64,000 bases of DNA, from assembly GCA_041661795.1 (NCBI GenBank), contig JBAZTS010000002.1:36263-100262 (forward strand). The letters run 5' to 3'. This DNA comes from Minisyncoccota bacterium. Its GTDB lineage: Bacteria > Patescibacteriota > Minisyncoccia > UBA6257 > JAGOQP01. Below the pieces are notes generated by a model. It was not told the DNA's origin, searched no databases, and worked only from the letters and a program-made list of their open reading frames with translations. Position 1 is the first letter of the stretch. Every line of letters begins with the position of its first letter. Made by a program: the position numbers and the translations under genes. Shown piece after piece: positions 39,326 through 61,976 of the stretch.

Positions 39326-39923
39326 AAAAAAAGCCCGCCGGTGTCTTCCGAGGAAGTCCTGGCGGGGTGGAACAGGTGGTGCGACCTTAGCTCACTCGGT
39401 GCTGTCGAGTTCGCTCGCCCGATATACTCTCCGGGTGATACGAGAGCTCGAATCTGCCGAGACGTGACGCGTGGTCACTTTTTGCTAAGGTTTTTTGGGG
39501 TGCTGCTCCTCTTCCTGTTCGGTACTTTCTAAGAACGGTTCCCACACCGTTCTCGCCGGCGAGCTTAGCTCGCGCAGGGTAGAGGCGCCTCCTAAAGGAG
39601 GCAAAACATGAGTACAAATTCGGAATTGGATTTTTGTGAGTTTCCGGACTCACTATCTCGTTTGGTGCACCTCCCGAGAAGTCCTTTTCCTTCCACTTAT
39701 TATTGGGCCAGTTTGAGATCAGCGGTGGACACTCAAACTGTTTGCGTGCTTTCACCGAGCTTGCCGGATTTACTCGGATCTTTGGTGAGATGGCGCAACC
39801 CCACAGTTTTGACCTCCCTCAGCTGCGCGCGCAACTGAGTTGTCAGCTCACCTAGTGACAGAGGCCCCCTTTTTGACCGTTTTTTCTTCTTGGTCCGGAA
39901 GGGTTTCCGTGCTACATTTTTAT
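39326..39923 (-). ncRNA. GC-rich ~600-nt transcription unit of unknown identity (large structured RNA candidate)
   Basis: It runs from a near-consensus promoter (39930-39957) to a strong terminator (cccgccagg...ccggcggg plus U7). It is dense in local hairpins (gcgagc-tta-gctcgc, gcctcc-taaa-ggaggc, cagtttgag...ctcaaactg, gtgagt...actcac). Only composition-type ORFs are present. Confidence 0.4.
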
Positions 39924-39929
39924 GCCTGT

Positions 39930-39957
39930 ATTATACTCCTTTTGTTTTATTTGTCAA
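39930..39957 (-). promoter_or_regulatory. Sigma-70-type promoter TTGACA-16-TATAAT driving the GC-rich unit
   Basis: The minus strand reads ttgacaaataaaacaaaaggagtataat. Both hexamers are perfect. Confidence 0.6.
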
Positions 39958-49698: not shown

Positions 49699-49926
49699 AT
49701 GGCTAGAAGAAAACCGGCAAGATCGATAACCATAGATAGGATGACAAGGATGATTTGCGGAGTGCTGATTCCGTCAATTATCCTTCCTCGACTACAAGAG
49801 GCGGAAGACATCGCCCTTCGGACTCTGGGGGCTTTAGGAAAGTCCCAGAGTGAAGCTCGTCATCTTTTCTGGGTGGCTATTGAGACACTCGCCAAGAGTG
49901 AGCAGATTTCCAACGGCACGCAATAG
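49699..49926 (+). CDS. GC-rich 75-aa hypothetical protein (compositionally foreign island E)
   Basis: AAGGGGGA lies 6 nt upstream of the ATG. A GC-clamped terminator (aggcgcggaac-ttg-ttccgcgcct) follows. The sequence is visibly more GC-rich than its flanks. Confidence 0.45.
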   Translation: MARRKPARSITIDRMTRMICGVLIPSIILPRLQEAEDIALRTLGALGKSQSEARHLFWVAIETLAKSEQISNGTQ

Positions 49927-49975
49927 ACAGCTCTTTCCAACTATAGGCGCGGAACTTGTTCCGCGCCTTCTGCAT

Positions 49976-52668: not shown

Positions 52669-54618
52669 TTATGAAGATGCTTTTTTAATTGCCTCCATTT
52701 CTTTTTTTATTTGAGTAGCTTTTTCAAACTGTAAATTTCTCTGTGCCATTTCCAGTTTTTGCCTTAATTCTTTCAAATAATCCCTCTTAAATTCACTGCT
52801 GATATTTTTGAACTCTTCGCTTTTCTCTTCTTTATTATCTAATAATGTATTTTTTATTTCTTTTATTATGGCCTGTGGCTTTTTATTGTGTTTGCGATTA
52901 TATTCCTGCTGAATTTTTCTTCTTCTGTCCATTTCGGATATTGCTCCTTTCATTGATTTAGTAGTTTTGTCGGCATACATAATCACATGGCTGTTTAAGT
53001 TTCTGGCAGATCTTCCGGCAATTTGAATGAAAGAAGTTTTATCTCTTAAAAATCCTTCTTTGTCGGCGTCTAAAATAGCTATTAATGAAACTTCAGGTAA
53101 ATCCAATCCCTCTCTTAATAAGTTTATCCCAACCAGAACATCAAACTTTCCGGTTCTCAAATCAAAAAGAATTTTTGGTCTTTCCAATGTATCAATTTCG
53201 GAATGTAAAAACTCAGCTTTTATTTTTTTATCCTTAAAATGTTGAACTAGGGCTTCTGACAAGCGCTTGGTAAGAACAGTTACTAAAACTCTTTCTTTCC
53301 TTTTTATTCTTTCTTCTATTTCTTTTATTAAGTCAGGGATTTGATTTTCCGTGGGGCGAATCTCAGTTTCCGGGTCCAAAAGATAAGTTGGTCTGACAAT
53401 CTGTTGGGCAACCAAAGATGATTTTTCCAATTCATATTCAGCTGGGGTAGCCGAAGCAAACAAACATTTATTTATTTTTGAATGAAACTCGTTAAATTTA
53501 AGAGGTCGATTATCTAAGGCCGATGGTATGCGAAATCCGTGTTCTATAAGAGTTTCTTTTCTGGCTTTGTCGCCGTGATACATCCCTCTTACCTGAGGAA
53601 GAGTCATGTGGGACTCGTCTATAATCATCAAAAAATCTTTAGGAAAATAATCAATCAAAGTGAATGGGGGACTGTCTGGTTTTCTTCCCTCAAAATAACG
53701 GGAATAATTTTCAATTCCTTTACACCAGCCAACTTCAGATATCAAAGCCATATCATAATTAGTCCTTCTCTTGAGACGCTCGGCTTCTATCATTTTTCCT
53801 CTTTCCTGAAGTTTTTTAACTTGTTCTTCCAAATCCAAACGTATATTGGATATGGCTACTTGTCTTACACTCTCTTCCGATGACCAGAATTTTGCCGGAA
53901 ATAAATTAATTTCTTTTATATCTTTACTTTTTCCAAACGGCGCTTCCATTTCCACTATTTTCTCAATTGATTCGTGGTTTATCTTAAATCTGTATAAAAT
54001 ATCTCCTCCCGGGGGCCAAACATCTATAAACTCGGCCCTCTGTCTAAAATTTCCTCTCCAAAAACCAAATTCGTTTCTCTCAAACTGTAAAGTTAGTAAT
54101 TTTTTTAGAAGTTCTCTTTTAGTTGTTTTTTGACCCACTTTTATTTTTAAAGAAAGATTTTTGTATGCCTCTGGAGAACCCAAATTATAAATACAGGAAA
54201 CAGAAGCCACGATTATGGTGTTTGGATTTTTTAAAACTGATTGGACGGCCGCGTGTCTTAGTTTGTCTATCTCTTCATTAATTTGAACTTCCTTTTCTAT
54301 ATAAGTATCGGATGTGGGTAAGTAGGCCTCTGGTTGGTAGTAGTCGTAGTAGGAAACAAAATAATGGACATTGTCTTTAGGAAATATCATTTTAAATTCT
54401 TCATAAAGCTGGGCGGCTAAAGTTTTGTTATGGGAAATAACTAAGGTGGGCTTGTTAAGTGCCTGAATGGTGTGGGCCATAGTAAACGTTTTACCGCTTC
54501 CGGTAACTCCCAAAAGTGTCTGGAATTTATTGTTTTTACGGAACCCAGAAACTATCTGTTTTATAGCTTTGGGTTGATCGCCAGCTGGCTTTAGTTTTTT
54601 TGATATATTAAATGGCAT
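52669..54618 (-). CDS. uvrB: Excinuclease ABC subunit B
   Basis: PAGDQPKAI, GVTGSGKTFT, DESH, LREGLDLPEV and the C-terminal UVR domain. Confidence 0.97.
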   Translation of the reverse strand: MPFNISKKLKPAGDQPKAIKQIVSGFRKNNKFQTLLGVTGSGKTFTMAHTIQALNKPTLVISHNKTLAAQLYEEFKMIFPKDNVHYFVSYYDYYQPEAYLPTSDTYIEKEVQINEEIDKLRHAAVQSVLKNPNTIIVASVSCIYNLGSPEAYKNLSLKIKVGQKTTKRELLKKLLTLQFERNEFGFWRGNFRQRAEFIDVWPPGGDILYRFKINHESIEKIVEMEAPFGKSKDIKEINLFPAKFWSSEESVRQVAISNIRLDLEEQVKKLQERGKMIEAERLKRRTNYDMALISEVGWCKGIENYSRYFEGRKPDSPPFTLIDYFPKDFLMIIDESHMTLPQVRGMYHGDKARKETLIEHGFRIPSALDNRPLKFNEFHSKINKCLFASATPAEYELEKSSLVAQQIVRPTYLLDPETEIRPTENQIPDLIKEIEERIKRKERVLVTVLTKRLSEALVQHFKDKKIKAEFLHSEIDTLERPKILFDLRTGKFDVLVGINLLREGLDLPEVSLIAILDADKEGFLRDKTSFIQIAGRSARNLNSHVIMYADKTTKSMKGAISEMDRRRKIQQEYNRKHNKKPQAIIKEIKNTLLDNKEEKSEEFKNISSEFKRDYLKELRQKLEMAQRNLQFEKATQIKKEMEAIKKASS

Positions 54619-54626
54619 AATTTTCT

Positions 54627-54654
54627 GCCACCTTTTTGGTCAGAAAAAGGTGGC
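54627..54654 (-). promoter_or_regulatory. Perfect 11-bp hairpin that sequesters the uvrB Shine-Dalgarno
   Basis: Minus-strand RNA reads GCCACCUUUUU-cugacc-AAAAAGGUGGC followed by agaaaauu and AUG. The AAGGUGG SD is fully paired. Confidence 0.5.
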
Positions 54655-54842
54655 GCCAAAACTGACAACCCTGTATATCCTCTCAAACAAATGAAACAAA
54701 TATCTCGCTTTGTCTTGAACTCGTATCTGCTATACTCACACACTCAAGACACTAAAAGCTCATATTTGCTTTATTTGTTAGTGTTCGGACATACGGGTTG
54801 ATATTTAGCTAATAATAGCCCTAAATCTAGTGTTTGTTAATA

Positions 54843-54871
54843 TTGACTTATTAGTAATAATATGATATACT
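54843..54871 (+). promoter_or_regulatory. Sigma-70-type promoter TTGACT-17-TATACT for GC-rich island A
   Basis: ttgacttattagtaataatatgatatact. The AT-rich promoter abuts the GC-rich transcribed region. Confidence 0.55.
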
Positions 54872-54962
54872 CAAAACAAGTTTCGAAACCGCTTCACTGC
54901 CGTGAACAACACTACAGAAAGAGCGGTCGGAGCACTGCTCTTTCACAGAAAGGGGAACTTCG

Positions 54963-55361
54963 ATGAGTGGGATCGCTTGGTTTTTCGAGGTGTTCGCTCT
55001 GCTGTTTTTCGTGGGGACTCTGGGCGTTGCTTTCATCGGACGCCGCATCCTCAAGGCGGAGCAGGAGTCGTCGGTTCTGATGTCTTTCCTCCAGATCTGC
55101 AGTGGAGCGCTCTTCATCTTCTACGTTTTCGGACTGGGTCAACTCATGGCTCTGTCTGGACTGGAAGGTGCAAGGGCGCCCCGGTGGCTGATTCCGGGCA
55201 CCTACATCACTCTCACCATCTTCAGCGCGTTGACTCGGCTGGCTCTTCCAAGGTGGGGCAGTGACAACAAAGCGATGCAACTCTGGAGTGTCGTCAGCGT
55301 CCTGACGTTCCTACTCGGCACGTTCTGCCTCGGGGCGTACTCGTCCAACTACTTCGAGTAG
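54963..55361 (+). CDS. GC-rich 132-aa four-TM membrane protein (compositionally foreign island A)
   Basis: AAAGGGGAA SD. Four hydrophobic helices (WFFEVFALLFFVGTLGVAFI, LQICSGALFIFYVFGLGQLMAL, GTYITLTIFSALTRLAL, LWSVVSVLTFLLGTFCLGAY). Own terminator. Confidence 0.65.
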   Translation: MSGIAWFFEVFALLFFVGTLGVAFIGRRILKAEQESSVLMSFLQICSGALFIFYVFGLGQLMALSGLEGARAPRWLIPGTYITLTIFSALTRLALPRWGSDNKAMQLWSVVSVLTFLLGTFCLGAYSSNYFE

Positions 55362-55386
55362 GTCTCCTTCTTCAGCTCTTCAACTG

Positions 55387-55420
55387 GCGGCGTCTCTCAC
55401 GAGGCGCCGCACTGCTTTTT
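55387..55420 (+). terminator. Intrinsic terminator of island A
   Basis: gcggcgtctc-tcac-gaggcgccgc followed by a T-run. Confidence 0.7.
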
Positions 55421-55467
55421 ATATGGTTATAAAATTTATATAAATTTCCCCGTCAATATAAATCCGC

Positions 55468-56607
55468 TTAATCGGTATATGTCCGTGACCGACGTAGTCG
55501 GTGGTATCGTATAGCAAATCTGTGGGCTTCGTTTCTTAACGAAAGTAATGTATTTTTAACATCTTCGGGGATTTGGCTCAAGCTGATAGGGGATTTTGAA
55601 TAGGGACTGTAAATCAATCCTTTTGTTTGTGATCTTTTATATTTCTTGCCAACATCGTTAATTAACTTACCATTACAATTAGAACGATCGTTGTAATTGT
55701 AATGGTGTGGATTATTACCCACAGATTGCAATTTGCCCACGTTTAGTTTTGCTAGAGCTATCATCGGAATCTTAATTGTTTTGAGTTGTGAGATTTGTGA
55801 TTTTCCTCCGTCAATGATAATTAAATCCGGATATTTCCATTCTTTGTGGTTAAGGCGTCTTTCTATAATTTCTTTTATTGAAGCCGGGTCATTGGCTCCT
55901 TTTATCGTTTTTATTTTAAATTTTCTGTAAAGATTTTTATTAGGTTTATTTCCGATAAACGTTACCATTGAGCCAACTGACAAACTACCTTGGGTATTGG
56001 AAATGTCGTAGCACTCAATATGTGTTTTTTCTCCATTATATAAACGAAGAAAAGTTTTTAATCCATTAACCACCTGGATGTATTTTTTTACTTCGATATT
56101 ATGAGCGGAACATAACCCTAAGTGATAATACAAGCACGGCTTTTCCGGTTTATTTTTACATGTGCGATAGGGGAATATTCTTCTGATTATCAATAAGAGA
56201 TGCTTAATCTCTTTTGCGTCTACAAACGGGCCAACAAAATCGGCTTTAAATTTTTTTGTTTGGTGTGTTAAAAGCACTCTGGGGTACTTTTCGTCGGTAA
56301 AAGCTATATACAAAAAATCCTTGTCATCTTTAAGTTCAATGTTATATTTTGGCTGATACTGTCTAACTAATTTTCTTTCTAAAATCAAGGCGTCTTTTTC
56401 AGATGGGGTTTCTATAAAATCTAAGTCAGCTACTTGTTTGTAAAAATTAATAGAAGCATTCTCTTGTCTAGAAAAATGCGATTCTATTCTCTTTTTTATA
56501 TTAATAGCTTTTCCGATATACAAAATCTTCTCATTCTTATCTTTGAAAATATATACTCCCGGTTTCTTAGGAAGTGCTTTTATCTTATTCTTCAGGATTG
56601 TTTTCAC
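55468..56607 (-). CDS. uvrC: UvrC-like excinuclease subunit, short form (GIY-YIG plus RNase-H-like endonuclease region; no UVR or HhH2 domains seen)
   Basis: PGVYIFKDKNEKILYIGKAINIKKR (GIY-YIG), IECYDISNTQG, PDLIIIDGGKSQ, IALAK and RNEAHRFAI. 379 aa versus about 600 aa canonically. Contains the palindrome at 55669-55706 in frame. Confidence 0.8.
   Translation of the reverse strand: MKTILKNKIKALPKKPGVYIFKDKNEKILYIGKAINIKKRIESHFSRQENASINFYKQVADLDFIETPSEKDALILERKLVRQYQPKYNIELKDDKDFLYIAFTDEKYPRVLLTHQTKKFKADFVGPFVDAKEIKHLLLIIRRIFPYRTCKNKPEKPCLYYHLGLCSAHNIEVKKYIQVVNGLKTFLRLYNGEKTHIECYDISNTQGSLSVGSMVTFIGNKPNKNLYRKFKIKTIKGANDPASIKEIIERRLNHKEWKYPDLIIIDGGKSQISQLKTIKIPMIALAKLNVGKLQSVGNNPHHYNYNDRSNCNGKLINDVGKKYKRSQTKGLIYSPYSKSPISLSQIPEDVKNTLLSLRNEAHRFAIRYHRLRRSRTYTD
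55669..55706. repeat. Palindromic element copy a (inside uvrC, in frame)
   Basis: accattacaattagaacgatcgttgtaattgtaatggt. On the minus strand it encodes part of NNPHHYNYNDRSNCNGKL. Confidence 0.85.
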
Positions 56608-56644
56608 TGTTTTTTTATTTTTATCCTTATCTTAATCTTAATCT

Positions 56645-56682
56645 ACCATTACATTTAGAACGATCGTTCTAAATGTAATGGT
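56645..56682. repeat. Palindromic element copy b
   Basis: accattacatttagaacgatcgttctaaatgtaatggt is a perfect 38-nt palindrome. It ends 2 nt from the stop of the 56685-57245 gene. Confidence 0.9.
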
Positions 56683-56684
56683 GG

Positions 56685-57245
56685 CTAGATTTTCTTTATA
56701 GTCCCCATTTTTCCTATTTCCAATATCTCCACGTATTCGTTTATTCTCATTTTTTCTAAATCTTCCACAAACTTTTTAGGAATTTTTATTTTTCCTATCC
56801 AGACACTTTTTTGCAACATTTCAAATCCAATATTCTTTACAGCTGATCTTAACCAAGCCCTCTTCCTTTTAAATTTTTCCGGAACATCAAAAGCTATCAA
56901 AATAACATTGTTTCCGGCTTCTTTCTTATAATCTAAAGCTGGAGATTGATTATTGGATACCCGGTTAATAAGTTTTTTGGCTTTTTTAGTAATCTTGATA
57001 ATCAACCCCTCTTTTTGTTCTATGAGTCCGTCTTTCTTAAGACGATAAATCATTACCCTATATCTGTTTCTTATTTTTTCTTTCTCTGTTTTGATAGTCT
57101 CATTTTTAGTGCCGATTCTATTTAAATTGTCTCTTAATATAGACGTTGAGCCCCAAGAGAATAAAAACGCTTCAAAAGCATTAGAGTATGTTTGTCTATC
57201 TACATTATTTAGAAAACTTATTGTTTCTCTATTTCTTGCCCTCAT
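56685..57245 (-). CDS. PaaX-like / Cas2-fold-like putative regulator (wHTH plus ferredoxin-like C-terminal domain)
   Basis: wHTH-like RVMIYRLKKDGLIEQ. The C-terminus VILIAFDVPEKFKRKRAWLRSAVKNIGFEMLQKSVWIG resembles the PaaX C-domain or Cas2 beta-alpha-beta core. Bracketed by palindrome copies b and c. Confidence 0.55.
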   Translation of the reverse strand: MRARNRETISFLNNVDRQTYSNAFEAFLFSWGSTSILRDNLNRIGTKNETIKTEKEKIRNRYRVMIYRLKKDGLIEQKEGLIIKITKKAKKLINRVSNNQSPALDYKKEAGNNVILIAFDVPEKFKRKRAWLRSAVKNIGFEMLQKSVWIGKIKIPKKFVEDLEKMRINEYVEILEIGKMGTIKKI

Positions 57246-57269: not shown

Positions 57270-57306
57270 ACCATTACAATTAGAACGATCGTTCTAATTG
57301 TAATGG
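57270..57306. repeat. Palindromic element copy c
   Basis: accattacaattagaacgatcgttctaattgtaatgg lies 24 nt upstream of the 56685-57245 gene start. Confidence 0.9.
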
Positions 57307-57417
57307 AGGGAGTATATATGATTAAGAATATTAAATAATTATCATAGAGTTATTATGATTATAGATTGATTTTATCGTTTTAATTAAAGAGTGCCTTATA
57401 AATTAGCACGGACCGCT

Positions 57418-57570
57418 TTATGGGCGGTCCGGGATGGGTGGAGCGGGTGCGGGCTTGACCACTTTGGCCACGAGGCCGATTAATATGGTCAGCATTGAAA
57501 CGGGTACTACGGTGGCGATGATGACGGACGATTCCACCACCACCAGAGACCACTTGACTAGGTAGTGCAT
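57418..57570 (-). CDS. GC-rich island B gene 4: 50-aa hydrophobic protein (not in the ORF track)
   Basis: AAAGGAGGU lies 4 nt upstream of the ATG. Product is MHYLVKWSLVVVESSVIIATVVPVSMLTILIGLVAKVVKPAPAPPIPDRP. The start overlaps the gene 3 stop. The stop codon sits in the loop of the ggaccgc...gcggtcc hairpin. Confidence 0.55.
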   Translation of the reverse strand: MHYLVKWSLVVVESSVIIATVVPVSMLTILIGLVAKVVKPAPAPPIPDRP

Positions 57571-57689
57571 TCAACCTCCTTTCTTCTGAGAATCTTGGTG
57601 ATCCACAGATAGAGGTTGTATCCTGTTTGAATAACGTGGGCCATCTTTTGGCCCAGTATTGTCGTCCGATGAAACGTTGTTGTAGACAT
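57558..57689 (-). CDS. GC-rich island B gene 3: 43-aa protein
   Basis: AAAGGAGA lies 4 nt upstream of the ATG. Product is MSTTTFHRTTILGQKMAHVIQTGYNLYLWITKILRRKEVECTT. The longer 100-aa track ORF in this frame lacks an SD. Confidence 0.45.
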   Translation of the reverse strand: MSTTTFHRTTILGQKMAHVIQTGYNLYLWITKILRRKEVECTT

Positions 57690-57703
57690 CACGTCTCCTT
57701 TGG

Positions 57704-57949
57704 TTAGGCGATGGCGCCGGGGTATTCTTCGGAGATCTTCTCGATCTCTTTTTCCTCTTTCTTCACTTGGTCTGTGAGCACAAGGAAGAAAAAGATGATG
57801 GCCATGATTCCCACAAGAGTGGCAAAGGCCCATGAAAAGCTCTTGGGGAGTTGGAACCATCGTGATAAGTGATATCCTCCAAAAGTGAGAATTACCACGG
57901 CCACGGTCGCTCCAACTTTACGGAGCAAGTTGAGTAGTCCCGGGAACAT
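57704..57949 (-). CDS. GC-rich island B gene 2: 81-aa two-TM protein with acidic/basic tail
   Basis: AAGGAGGAG lies 4 nt upstream of the ATG. TM segments are VGATVAVVILTFGGY and WAFATLVGIMAIIFFFLVL, followed by the tail KKEEKEIEKISEEY. Confidence 0.65.
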   Translation of the reverse strand: MFPGLLNLLRKVGATVAVVILTFGGYHLSRWFQLPKSFSWAFATLVGIMAIIFFFLVLTDQVKKEEKEIEKISEEYPGAIA

Positions 57950-58193
57950 TACTCTCCTCCTTTTTGGTGTACATCTTTCGAAGTTTCTCCTGTAGAGCGT
58001 TGAGCCCCGTGAAGACCAGGGCTCCGGTCAGAAACCCGATACAAGCCAACGATCCTCGGATCTCCAATCCTGGAGGCAGTGGAACTCGGTCTGCCCATAG
58101 GACCGTGAAGAAACAGGAAGCAGCAGTTGAAAGGCCAACGAAAGTGAACCAAACCACTCTTGCGATCAACTCCAGAACTTTTCCGATTTTCAT
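57918..58193 (-). CDS. GC-rich island B gene 1: 91-aa two-TM protein with charged tail
   Basis: GAGGAGGA lies 6 nt upstream of the ATG. TM segments are VVWFTFVGLSTAASCFFTVLW and LACIGFLTGALVFTGLNAL, followed by the tail QEKLRKMYTKKEES. The layout is holin-like. Confidence 0.65.
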   Translation of the reverse strand: MKIGKVLELIARVVWFTFVGLSTAASCFFTVLWADRVPLPPGLEIRGSLACIGFLTGALVFTGLNALQEKLRKMYTKKEESNVPGTTQLAP

Positions 58194-58280
58194 GCTCTGA
58201 TCCTCCTCTGTTTTTCACATTATAATAATCATTGAATTTTGTCCATGTTTGATTTAGAATAACCCTTTGGTTGGCATTTT

Positions 58281-61193: not shown

Positions 61194-61411
61194 AGATAAT
61201 AATCATCGTAAAACCAAATAAAAAAGAAAATAAGGTTGTGAAAATAGGAGAGAACATTTTTGAAATTTATACGAATCAACCGGCTAAAGAAAATAAAGCC
61301 AATTTGGATATTATTCAACAAATGTCCAAGTATTTTAAAGTATCAAAATCAAAGGTTTCTATATCTTCCGGATTAAAGTCAAAGAAGAAAATTTTGGAAA
61401 TAAATATATAA
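61190..61411 (+). CDS. DUF167 (YggU-like) protein
   Basis: IIVKPNKKENKV...NQPAKENKANLDII...SKVSISSGLKSKKKILEI matches the DUF167 pattern. Confidence 0.8.
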   Translation: MKIIIIVKPNKKENKVVKIGENIFEIYTNQPAKENKANLDIIQQMSKYFKVSKSKVSISSGLKSKKKILEINI

Positions 61412-61941
61412 AAAAAGGGGGCTCCCGGTGTTGCTGGGAGCCCAAAGTGCGGTAAGGAGGTCAATGTACGATGCGGTGCCTGCCGTGCGTCGCTTCGCTC
61501 GTTCGGGTCTTGGTGGTTCAGATCAGGGCCAGTCGTGCCCGAAAACTTAACTTTCTGGCCCATTGCTTCTCGGCACGCATGGTTTCTCCTTGCATGGATT
61601 TTTGGTCCACGCAGCTCTGCCCTCAGCGCTTGACGGTGGCCTCGTCGTTGGTGCGGTGGTTGTTCTGACGCTGTTGCATGGGATTTCTCCTCGCGTGAAC
61701 GTCGTCGGTTGTTGGTGCTAGCTATGGCTCAAGTCAAGCTTTCTTTTCGGTGAGCTTGACGAGCAGTGCTAGCGCCTGTTCTGGGTTTCGTTTTTTATCG
61801 GTATAACCTTCACAAGGTTATACCAGGGTTTCCTTCCTGATTGGCGGTCAAGAAGGTTGTTTAATCATCCAGCATTGTCCTAACTAACGGAACGGCGGTT
61901 CGACGTCCACGTGCATCGCTTTCCTCCTTATGTAGTTTACT
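61410..61941 (-). ncRNA. GC-rich ~530-nt transcription unit (large structured RNA and/or SD-led micro-ORF cassette)
   Basis: Promoter at 61948-61976. Terminator gggctccc-agcaacac-cgggagcccc plus U7. The 5' uaaggagg...cgaugc can pair with the 3' gcaucg...ccuccuua. It contains an 11-bp GUGA-capped hairpin (ggtataacctt gtga aggttatacc). No ORF over 25 aa has a plausible start. Confidence 0.4.
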
Positions 61942-61947
61942 TATTTC

Positions 61948-61976
61948 AGGATAAAACAAAAACGGCTATTAGTCAA
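61948..61976 (-). promoter_or_regulatory. Sigma-70-type promoter TTGACT-17-TATCCT for the GC-rich unit
   Basis: The minus strand reads ttgactaatagccgtttttgttttatcct, located just after the SDR stop codon. Confidence 0.45.

Follow-up and report, generated by a model that had tools for sequence, protein, structure and literature searches.

Island A is a short GC-rich segment that lies between uvrB and uvrC in the window (the whole stretch of 64,000 nucleotides analyzed here). The genes of this region are, in order, tgt (−), a pilin-like gene (+), uvrB (−), island A (+), uvrC (−), a gene for a PaaX_M/Cas2-like regulator (−), island B (−), uvrA (+), and a DUF167-type gene (+). The names uvrB and uvrC, which the original prediction had given to the two neighbors, are correct as judged by their Pfam domains. 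Island A itself comprises a predicted promoter, a leader, a Shine–Dalgarno site, a single open reading frame termed A132, and an intrinsic terminator (Table 1).

Table 1. Positions in the window of island A, its neighboring features, and the other GC-rich islands.
Feature	Position	Strand	Remarks
GC-rich block of island A	54880–55415		47–70% GC in the fine GC profile
Sigma-70-type promoter of island A, TTGACT-17-TATACT	−35 54843–54848, −10 54866–54871	+	TG of the extended −10 at 54863–54864
Candidate uvrB promoter, TTAACA-17-TATTAT	54812–54840	−	10/12 in the consensus scan; putative function
GC-rich 5′ leader, ~85 nt	54878–54962	+	transcription start placed from the −10 position
Leader hairpin, GAAAGAGCGGU/ACUGCUCUUUC	54917–54944		11 bp
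Shine–Dalgarno site, AAAGGGGAA	54949–54957	+	7 nt before the ATG at 54963
A132 coding sequence, 132 aa	54963–55361	+	orphan family, two known members
Intrinsic terminator	55387–55420	+	10-bp stem (55387–55410), 8 GC pairs, 4-nt loop, then ACTGC and T5
uvrB leader hairpin, CCACCUUUUU/AAAAAGGUGG	54628–54653	−	perfect, 10 bp, 9 nt before the start codon
uvrC	55468–56607	−	short form, 379 aa
Palindrome ACCATTACAATTAGAACGATCGTTCTAATTGTAATGGT, three copies	55669–55706, 56645–56682, 57270–57306		perfect, 38 nt, only here
PaaX_M/Cas2-like regulator gene	56685–57245	−	
Island B	57380–58200	−	apparent operon of ORFs of 91, 81, about 42, and 50 aa
Island C	49699–49975		75-aa non-hydrophobic ORF, ~50% GC, own terminator
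Island D	39330–39957	−	~600-nt GC-rich transcript candidate directly upstream of dnaX
Island E	61411–61960		downstream of the DUF167-type gene, 52–57% GC, strongly A-poor on the plus strand
65-aa ORF in island E	61471–61668		GC3 0.74, not rated credible
GAACGGCGGTTC box in island E	61890		

As the GC content shifts abruptly across ~535 bp of a metagenome-assembled genome, island A could have been an assembly chimera or a contaminant fragment. We regard this as extremely improbable. The Candidatus Paceibacterota MAG GCA_041664185.1 (contig JBAYLG010000001.1) is 99.98% identical to the window, the only three SNPs lie outside island A, and both island borders are present. A 2.3-kb Logan contig from an independent assembly (SRR6484324) matches positions 54409–56674 with 100% identity and likewise spans both borders. 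In addition, the A132 protein has two NCBI accessions, and the promoter, the Shine–Dalgarno site, and the terminator are coherently placed across the borders.

The GC content rises from 17–23% (54820–54879) to 47–70% (54880–55419) and returns to 20% (55420–55459), in a window of 36% GC overall; the GC content of island A is 0.57. The limits of the block coincide with those of the predicted transcript, from the start to the terminator, and the promoter lies outside in host-type DNA. The segment of foreign composition is no larger than the predicted transcript, a point that the original prediction had not made. The A132 reading frame has a GC3 of 0.74 compared to ~0.31 in host genes, and its CAI against the host gene set is 0.34 compared to 0.65–0.76 for host genes. 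Both GC and codon usage are far off the host values, and the unit is compositionally foreign as had been proposed.

The expression signals that had been read from the sequence before, that is the promoter in AT-rich DNA, a GC-rich 5′ UTR of about 90 nt with a hairpin, the Shine–Dalgarno site, and a GC-clamped terminator, were all recovered at the positions in Table 1. Together with the reading frame they make up a self-contained expression unit. The promoter is embedded in DNA of 17–23% GC. Promoter-like matches of at least 10/12 occur 34 times on both strands of the whole 64-kb window, and six such matches carry the TG extension; the chance that such a promoter precedes a given ORF by no more than 150 nt is ~0.05 and, with TG, ~0.007. 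The folding z-score is −3.9 for the terminator and −1.6, which is not significant, for the leader.

The candidate uvrB promoter and the promoter of island A are arranged back to back. Since island A separates uvrB from uvrC, uvrB would need a promoter of its own. The leader of uvrB has a hairpin whose 3′ arm is the uvrB Shine–Dalgarno sequence AAGGTGG, and this hairpin may be a translational control element.

The adjoining uvrC gene codes for a short form of the protein with GIY-YIG and RNase H-like domains, in which no match to the C-terminal helix–hairpin–helix region was found; relatives also have a short UvrC of 356–357 aa. One copy of the palindrome ACCATTACAATTAGAACGATCGTTCTAATTGTAATGGT forms an in-frame insertion of ~23 aa in UvrC, and the UvrC of the related locus L085 is without this insertion. 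Of the other two copies, one immediately precedes uvrC and one the gene of the PaaX_M/Cas2-like regulator. The core of the palindrome, GAAC-N4-GTTC, resembles the Gram-positive SOS box, and the palindrome could be either the operator of the PaaX_M/Cas2-like regulator or a mobile palindrome of the RPE type.

The GC content of A132 at codon positions 1, 2, and 3 is 0.53, 0.44, and 0.74, and T makes up 0.41 of the second positions, values characteristic of a gene for a membrane protein that evolved under a GC-rich regime. A coding pattern is seen in the 132-aa frame only. The overlapping ORFs (54851–55117, 54902–55264, and 54912–55280) show the same pattern merely shifted, in agreement with their earlier dismissal as composition artefacts.

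We searched 1.84 billion representative proteins exhaustively with HMMER and obtained one true homologue, P0003 (E 4e-6), and a second match, P0002, which was rejected as a spurious repeat protein. P0003 has 131 aa and is 29% identical to A132 over 123 residues (pairwise E 2e-14), and both proteins have the motifs ALFxxYVFGxGxL and WxxPGxY in common. In the codon alignment of both genes the identity is highest at position 2 (0.52), followed by position 1 (0.43) and position 3 (0.35), and the synonymous sites are saturated; this order points to divergence as in proteins under selection. Given the codon periodicity, the homologue, and this pattern of divergence, we conclude that the A132 reading frame is real. 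The P0003 gene is located on a 1.9-kb contig beside a DUF5663 gene; its neighborhood is unlike that of island A, and it is not next to uvrC. The locus is an islet of 55–63% GC within DNA of 30–40% GC, and the gene has a GC3 of 0.68, its own Shine–Dalgarno site, and a strong GC hairpin terminator. A GC-rich islet within AT-rich surroundings is a feature that the sole homologue has in common with A132, and one that the original prediction had not mentioned. When 5.8 billion proteins were searched through a word index, the single sequence and the two-sequence profile alike retrieved A132 itself only, and scans of metagenomes and IMG/VR gave no further member. Among ~15 billion proteins no member was found in a GC-rich genome, and both known members reside in AT-rich contexts.

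AlphaFold2 predicts for A132 the helices 3–29, 34–65, 76–94, and 103–130 with a low-confidence mean pLDDT of 61. The original prediction of four hydrophobic helices agrees with this model; the hydropathy peaks back helices 1, 2, and 4 as transmembrane (TM) helices, and helix 3 stays under the threshold used. Sequence searches with A132 and P0003 against Pfam (E up to 1), NCBIfam (E up to 1), PHROGs, PADLOC, and PDB gave zero matches, so that the profile search and the topology prediction leave us with a protein of no matching family and four helices predicted at low confidence. A Foldseek comparison of the A132 model with PDB returned generic helical bundles with E above 0.3 and was disregarded. 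A132 has no enzymatic signature. We expect the product to be a small four-helix protein integral to the membrane and, most likely, a structural or oligomeric component of the envelope.

We compared the uvrC–uvrB junction in UvrB-anchored loci from metagenomes. In L087–L091, whose UvrB is 65–71% identical to that of the window, uvrC and uvrB abut or overlap (gap 0–60 nt), likely reflecting an ancestral operon. The loci L084, L085, and L165–L167 (UvrB identity about 75% in L084 and L085) have a gap of ~560 nt with a gene for a 120-aa four-TM protein on the opposite strand; this gene has 34% GC, its own Shine–Dalgarno site, and a terminator shared with uvrC. In L003 (UvrB identity 63%) a 60-aa two-TM ORF is found at the same place and in the same orientation. 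This graded series shows the junction to be a variable slot that small multi-pass membrane genes occupy; in this lineage the occupant is A132. The recurrence of the slot across relatives goes beyond the original prediction. As uvrC and uvrB are directly adjacent in five relatives, A132 is not a housekeeping membrane protein, and with the junction closed in these five and other occupants elsewhere the distribution is patchy.

The A132 protein has no detectable homology to the 120-aa slot protein (BLASTP E 0.16; hhalign probability 0.2%). The latter evolves fast: its copies in L084 and L085 are 69% identical, and by eye the UvrB proteins of these two loci differ very little. The exact borders of island A could not be located by aligning the intergenic flanks with L084 and L085, these sequences being too diverged. 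The relatives of the same clade span 30–51% GC, with a GC3 of uvrB of up to 0.59. Some of the sister loci have a further gene, for a secreted protein of 245 aa that ends in ...SYSF and has a weak Gcw_chp match (L085 98–835, L165 5289–6026, L167 1985–2722). The gene immediately precedes uvrC in the sister lineage, has 44–47% GC in loci of 35–37% GC (L085, L165), and possesses its own consensus-like promoter and terminator in L085. This protein looks like an outer-membrane-type beta-barrel, which would be unexpected in Patescibacteria.

The whole transcript of island A folds with a z-score of −4.0, compared to −5.5 for RNase P. Could the island then be a structured non-coding RNA and the 132-aa ORF an untranslated by-product of an A-poor, GC-rich sequence? 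In favor of this, RNase P and the ORF-less islands D and E have z-scores in a similar range, the block of high GC has the same limits as the transcript, and several frames stay open in A-poor sequence. Nevertheless, we consider this very unlikely, as the codon periodicity is strong and confined to one frame, the alignment to the homologue over 123 residues is at the protein level with position 2 more conserved than position 1 and position 1 more than position 3, and a Shine–Dalgarno site precedes the ATG by 7 nt. Moreover, the Rfam 15 covariance models gave nothing at the gathering score and only chance-level matches at E up to 10.

The folding is more pronounced than the encoded proteins would require. 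Compared to synonymous-codon shuffles A132 has a z-score of −3.18 with 0 of 120 shuffles as stable, and P0003 has −2.57 with 1 of 120. The respective values for host genes and for the AT-rich 120-aa gene are −0.7 to −1.3, and a control set of 22 GC-rich segments from GC-rich loci gave a mean z of −0.29 (sd 0.9, minimum −2.0). The folding of A132 is strand-specific (z −2.7 sense, +0.6 antisense). An RNA structure conserved between A132 and P0003 was not found in the codon alignment (alifold z −1.7, not significant). The excess folding of both family members hints at selection acting on the RNA, and the GC-richness may therefore be selected rather than inherited from a donor.

These observations lead to a second explanation, in which A132 is a resident gene of the slot, a fast-evolving positional orthologue of the four-TM gene of the sister loci, and its GC-rich folded mRNA is no leftover of transfer but is kept by selection, possibly for a benefit such as transcript stability in an AT-rich cell. 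Position, orientation, size, and the four-TM layout are the same as in the 120-aa gene of L084, L085, and L165–L167, and the fast evolution of that family could have made orthology unrecognizable at 75% UvrB identity. The match of the GC-rich block to the transcript limits would also fit, as would the GC3 of 0.68–0.74 that is kept in A132 and P0003 despite saturated synonymous sites, and the over-folding of both members relative to the shuffles and the GC-rich controls. On the contrary, there is no detectable homology to the 120-aa family, P0003 is not adjacent to uvrC, no RNA structure is common to both homologues, and the family has two members only. On balance we think that a resident gene is unlikely.

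Further GC-rich islands are present in the window. The original prediction had placed islands A and B in the same class. This is defensible as a description of composition and layout, with small hydrophobic ORFs in GC-rich DNA, but not as a family or a shared element, as island B is polycistronic and has no similarity to island A in DNA or protein. Island B has ~50% GC, and its ORFs have a GC3 of 0.52–0.71, a host-relative CAI of 0.46–0.50, and each a GGAGG-type Shine–Dalgarno site; the ORFs of 91, 81, and 50 aa are hydrophobic, and none of the island B ORFs matched a family. Islands B, C, D, and E combine elevated GC with strongly negative folding z-scores, and several have host-type promoters and hairpin terminators. 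For the mRNA of island C the z-score against synonymous shuffles is −3.4. Island D has no credible ORF, a z-score of −5.2, a clean terminator, and the promoter TTGACA-16-TATAAT, a perfect 12/12 match with only one counterpart in the window; Rfam gave no match up to E 10, and we list the island as a candidate for a new large non-coding RNA. Island E has a z-score of −4.6 and also no match in Rfam. A short-word blastn search across islands A–E and L083 found no shared sequence, and hence the islands are not copies of one element.

Outside the window, genes with outlying GC3 are found in other AT-rich loci of Patescibacteria type (73 aa in L090, 175 aa in L039, and 238 aa in L072). The gene of L090 (8628–8900) encodes a 73-aa two-TM protein in the uvrA/uvrC gap of a relative with 42% GC. 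It has a GC content of 0.59, a GC3 of 0.74, its own Shine–Dalgarno site, and a hairpin terminator with the tail CACTGCTTTTTA that is identical to that of island A; the protein has no similarity to A132 or to the ORFs of island B.

The GC-richness could be a selected and heritable trait of short transcription units in AT-rich Patescibacteria, including mRNAs of small membrane proteins as well as ORF-less RNAs. This reading draws on the agreement of the block with the span from start to terminator, on the excess folding, and on the persistence of the trait across homologues with saturated sites; we put it forward tentatively and regard it as doubtful at present. If it is true, the GC-rich units could be “armored”, long-lived, or dual-function transcripts. 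These bacteria would then have a strategy, acting at the level of RNA, by which small membrane proteins are expressed, and there would be a simple composition-based route to such units and to new non-coding RNAs in poorly understood genomes. Alternatively, an undiscovered pool of GC-rich mobile genes that is specific to these bacteria could carry the GC-rich units as its cargo. In the literature on GC-rich islands in genomes of the candidate phyla radiation we found nothing relevant.

The explanation that we favor, with moderate confidence, is that island A is a monocistronic orphan accessory gene that was acquired horizontally and sits in a variable slot. The foreign composition, the patchy distribution, and the presence of two members in different contexts suggest transfer, and given its GC3 and CAI the gene has probably spent little time under the AT-biased regime of the host, which argues for a recent acquisition. 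In the ancestral state uvrC and uvrB would have been abutting and presumably co-transcribed. In this sub-clade the junction has become a variable slot, taking up on the opposite strand small genes for multi-pass membrane proteins. The A132 gene, coming from a gene pool that is richer in GC and has not been sampled so far, plausibly that of higher-GC Patescibacteria or their mobile elements, would then have been inserted into the slot or have displaced an earlier occupant. By this insertion the coupling of uvrB to uvrC would have been lost, and the divergent promoter in the AT-rich spacer now appears to serve uvrB. The unit itself would be driven by the extended −10 promoter of housekeeping type in host-like AT-rich DNA, giving a GC-rich transcript of ~540 nt with a structured leader of ~85 nt, the 132-aa ORF, and the intrinsic terminator.

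As the clade spans 30–51% GC, the donors need not be distant. Nevertheless, the finding that no member occurs in GC-rich genomes sits uneasily with plain transfer, and a GC-rich block that ends at the transcript limits beside a host-like promoter is not predicted by random insertion of foreign DNA. A donor lineage of matching composition was not found, the sole homologue being in another AT-rich contig. At island A there is no integrase, flanking direct repeat, or nearby tRNA, and no mobility gene among the neighbors. The comparison also shows variable slots at the junctions between genes of the uvr cluster.

Among known proteins, SMR/EmrE, CrcB/Fluc, and GtrA are similar to A132 in length (about 110–130 aa) and in having four helices. 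Membership of A132 in the SMR family (PF00893) was rejected, as there is no Pfam match at E up to 1 and the glutamate E9 in TM1 is not conserved in P0003.

The mRNAs of type I toxins (hok, tisB, dinQ, zorO) resemble island A in coding for a hydrophobic product, in being stable and folded, and in having a long structured leader able to occlude the Shine–Dalgarno site, an ability that is predicted for island A. TisB and DinQ are SOS-induced small membrane toxins of E. coli in a DNA-damage repair setting, to which the repair genes next to island A can be likened. A132 could accordingly be conceived as a membrane-active effector or protector (type I toxin-like, holin-like, or an immunity protein) that is silenced by an anti-Shine–Dalgarno sequence in the leader. 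The small hydrophobic protein, the highly structured GC-rich mRNA, and the long leader are in line with this idea, and the 3′ arm CUCUUUC of the leader hairpin is predicted, in the MFE versus the centroid fold only, to pair with GAAAGAG or, alternatively, with the Shine–Dalgarno sequence GAAAGGG. However, type I toxins have less than 60 aa and one TM helix, and A132 with 132 aa and four helices is far above this size. The consensus scan revealed no convincing antisense promoter inside island A. Moreover, the promoter is without a GAAC-N4-GTTC box, the folding of the leader is not significant, and there is neither a phage context nor a match in PHROGs or PADLOC. We thus judge such an effector to be improbable.

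Phage “morons” are, like island A, self-contained units of atypical composition inserted between genes that abut in relatives. Island A differs from them by its location in a chromosomal DNA-repair cluster without a prophage, and no phage relatives were found: a test for a phage holin or moron gave no PHROGs match, no tblastn match in phage and plasmid records, and no relative in IMG/VR. An integron gene cassette was also considered and rejected, as the 3′ hairpin region is by eye without the RYYYAAC/GTTRRRY cores and no integrase is among the neighbors.

Returning to the favored reading of a horizontally acquired orphan gene, the comparison is with the single-gene ORFan islets that arise by horizontal transfer. 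Unlike these, island A is without a mobility gene, tRNA, flanking repeats, or an identified donor lineage, and its foreign block coincides with the transcript. Furthermore, foreign DNA is mostly more AT-rich than its host, and island A is GC-richer. On the other hand, island A shares with the ORFan islets the deviant GC content and codon usage, the patchy presence, the position between conserved genes, the own promoter and terminator, and a product without a known family, and would thus represent the single-gene islet in clear-cut form, within a reduced genome of the symbiont type.
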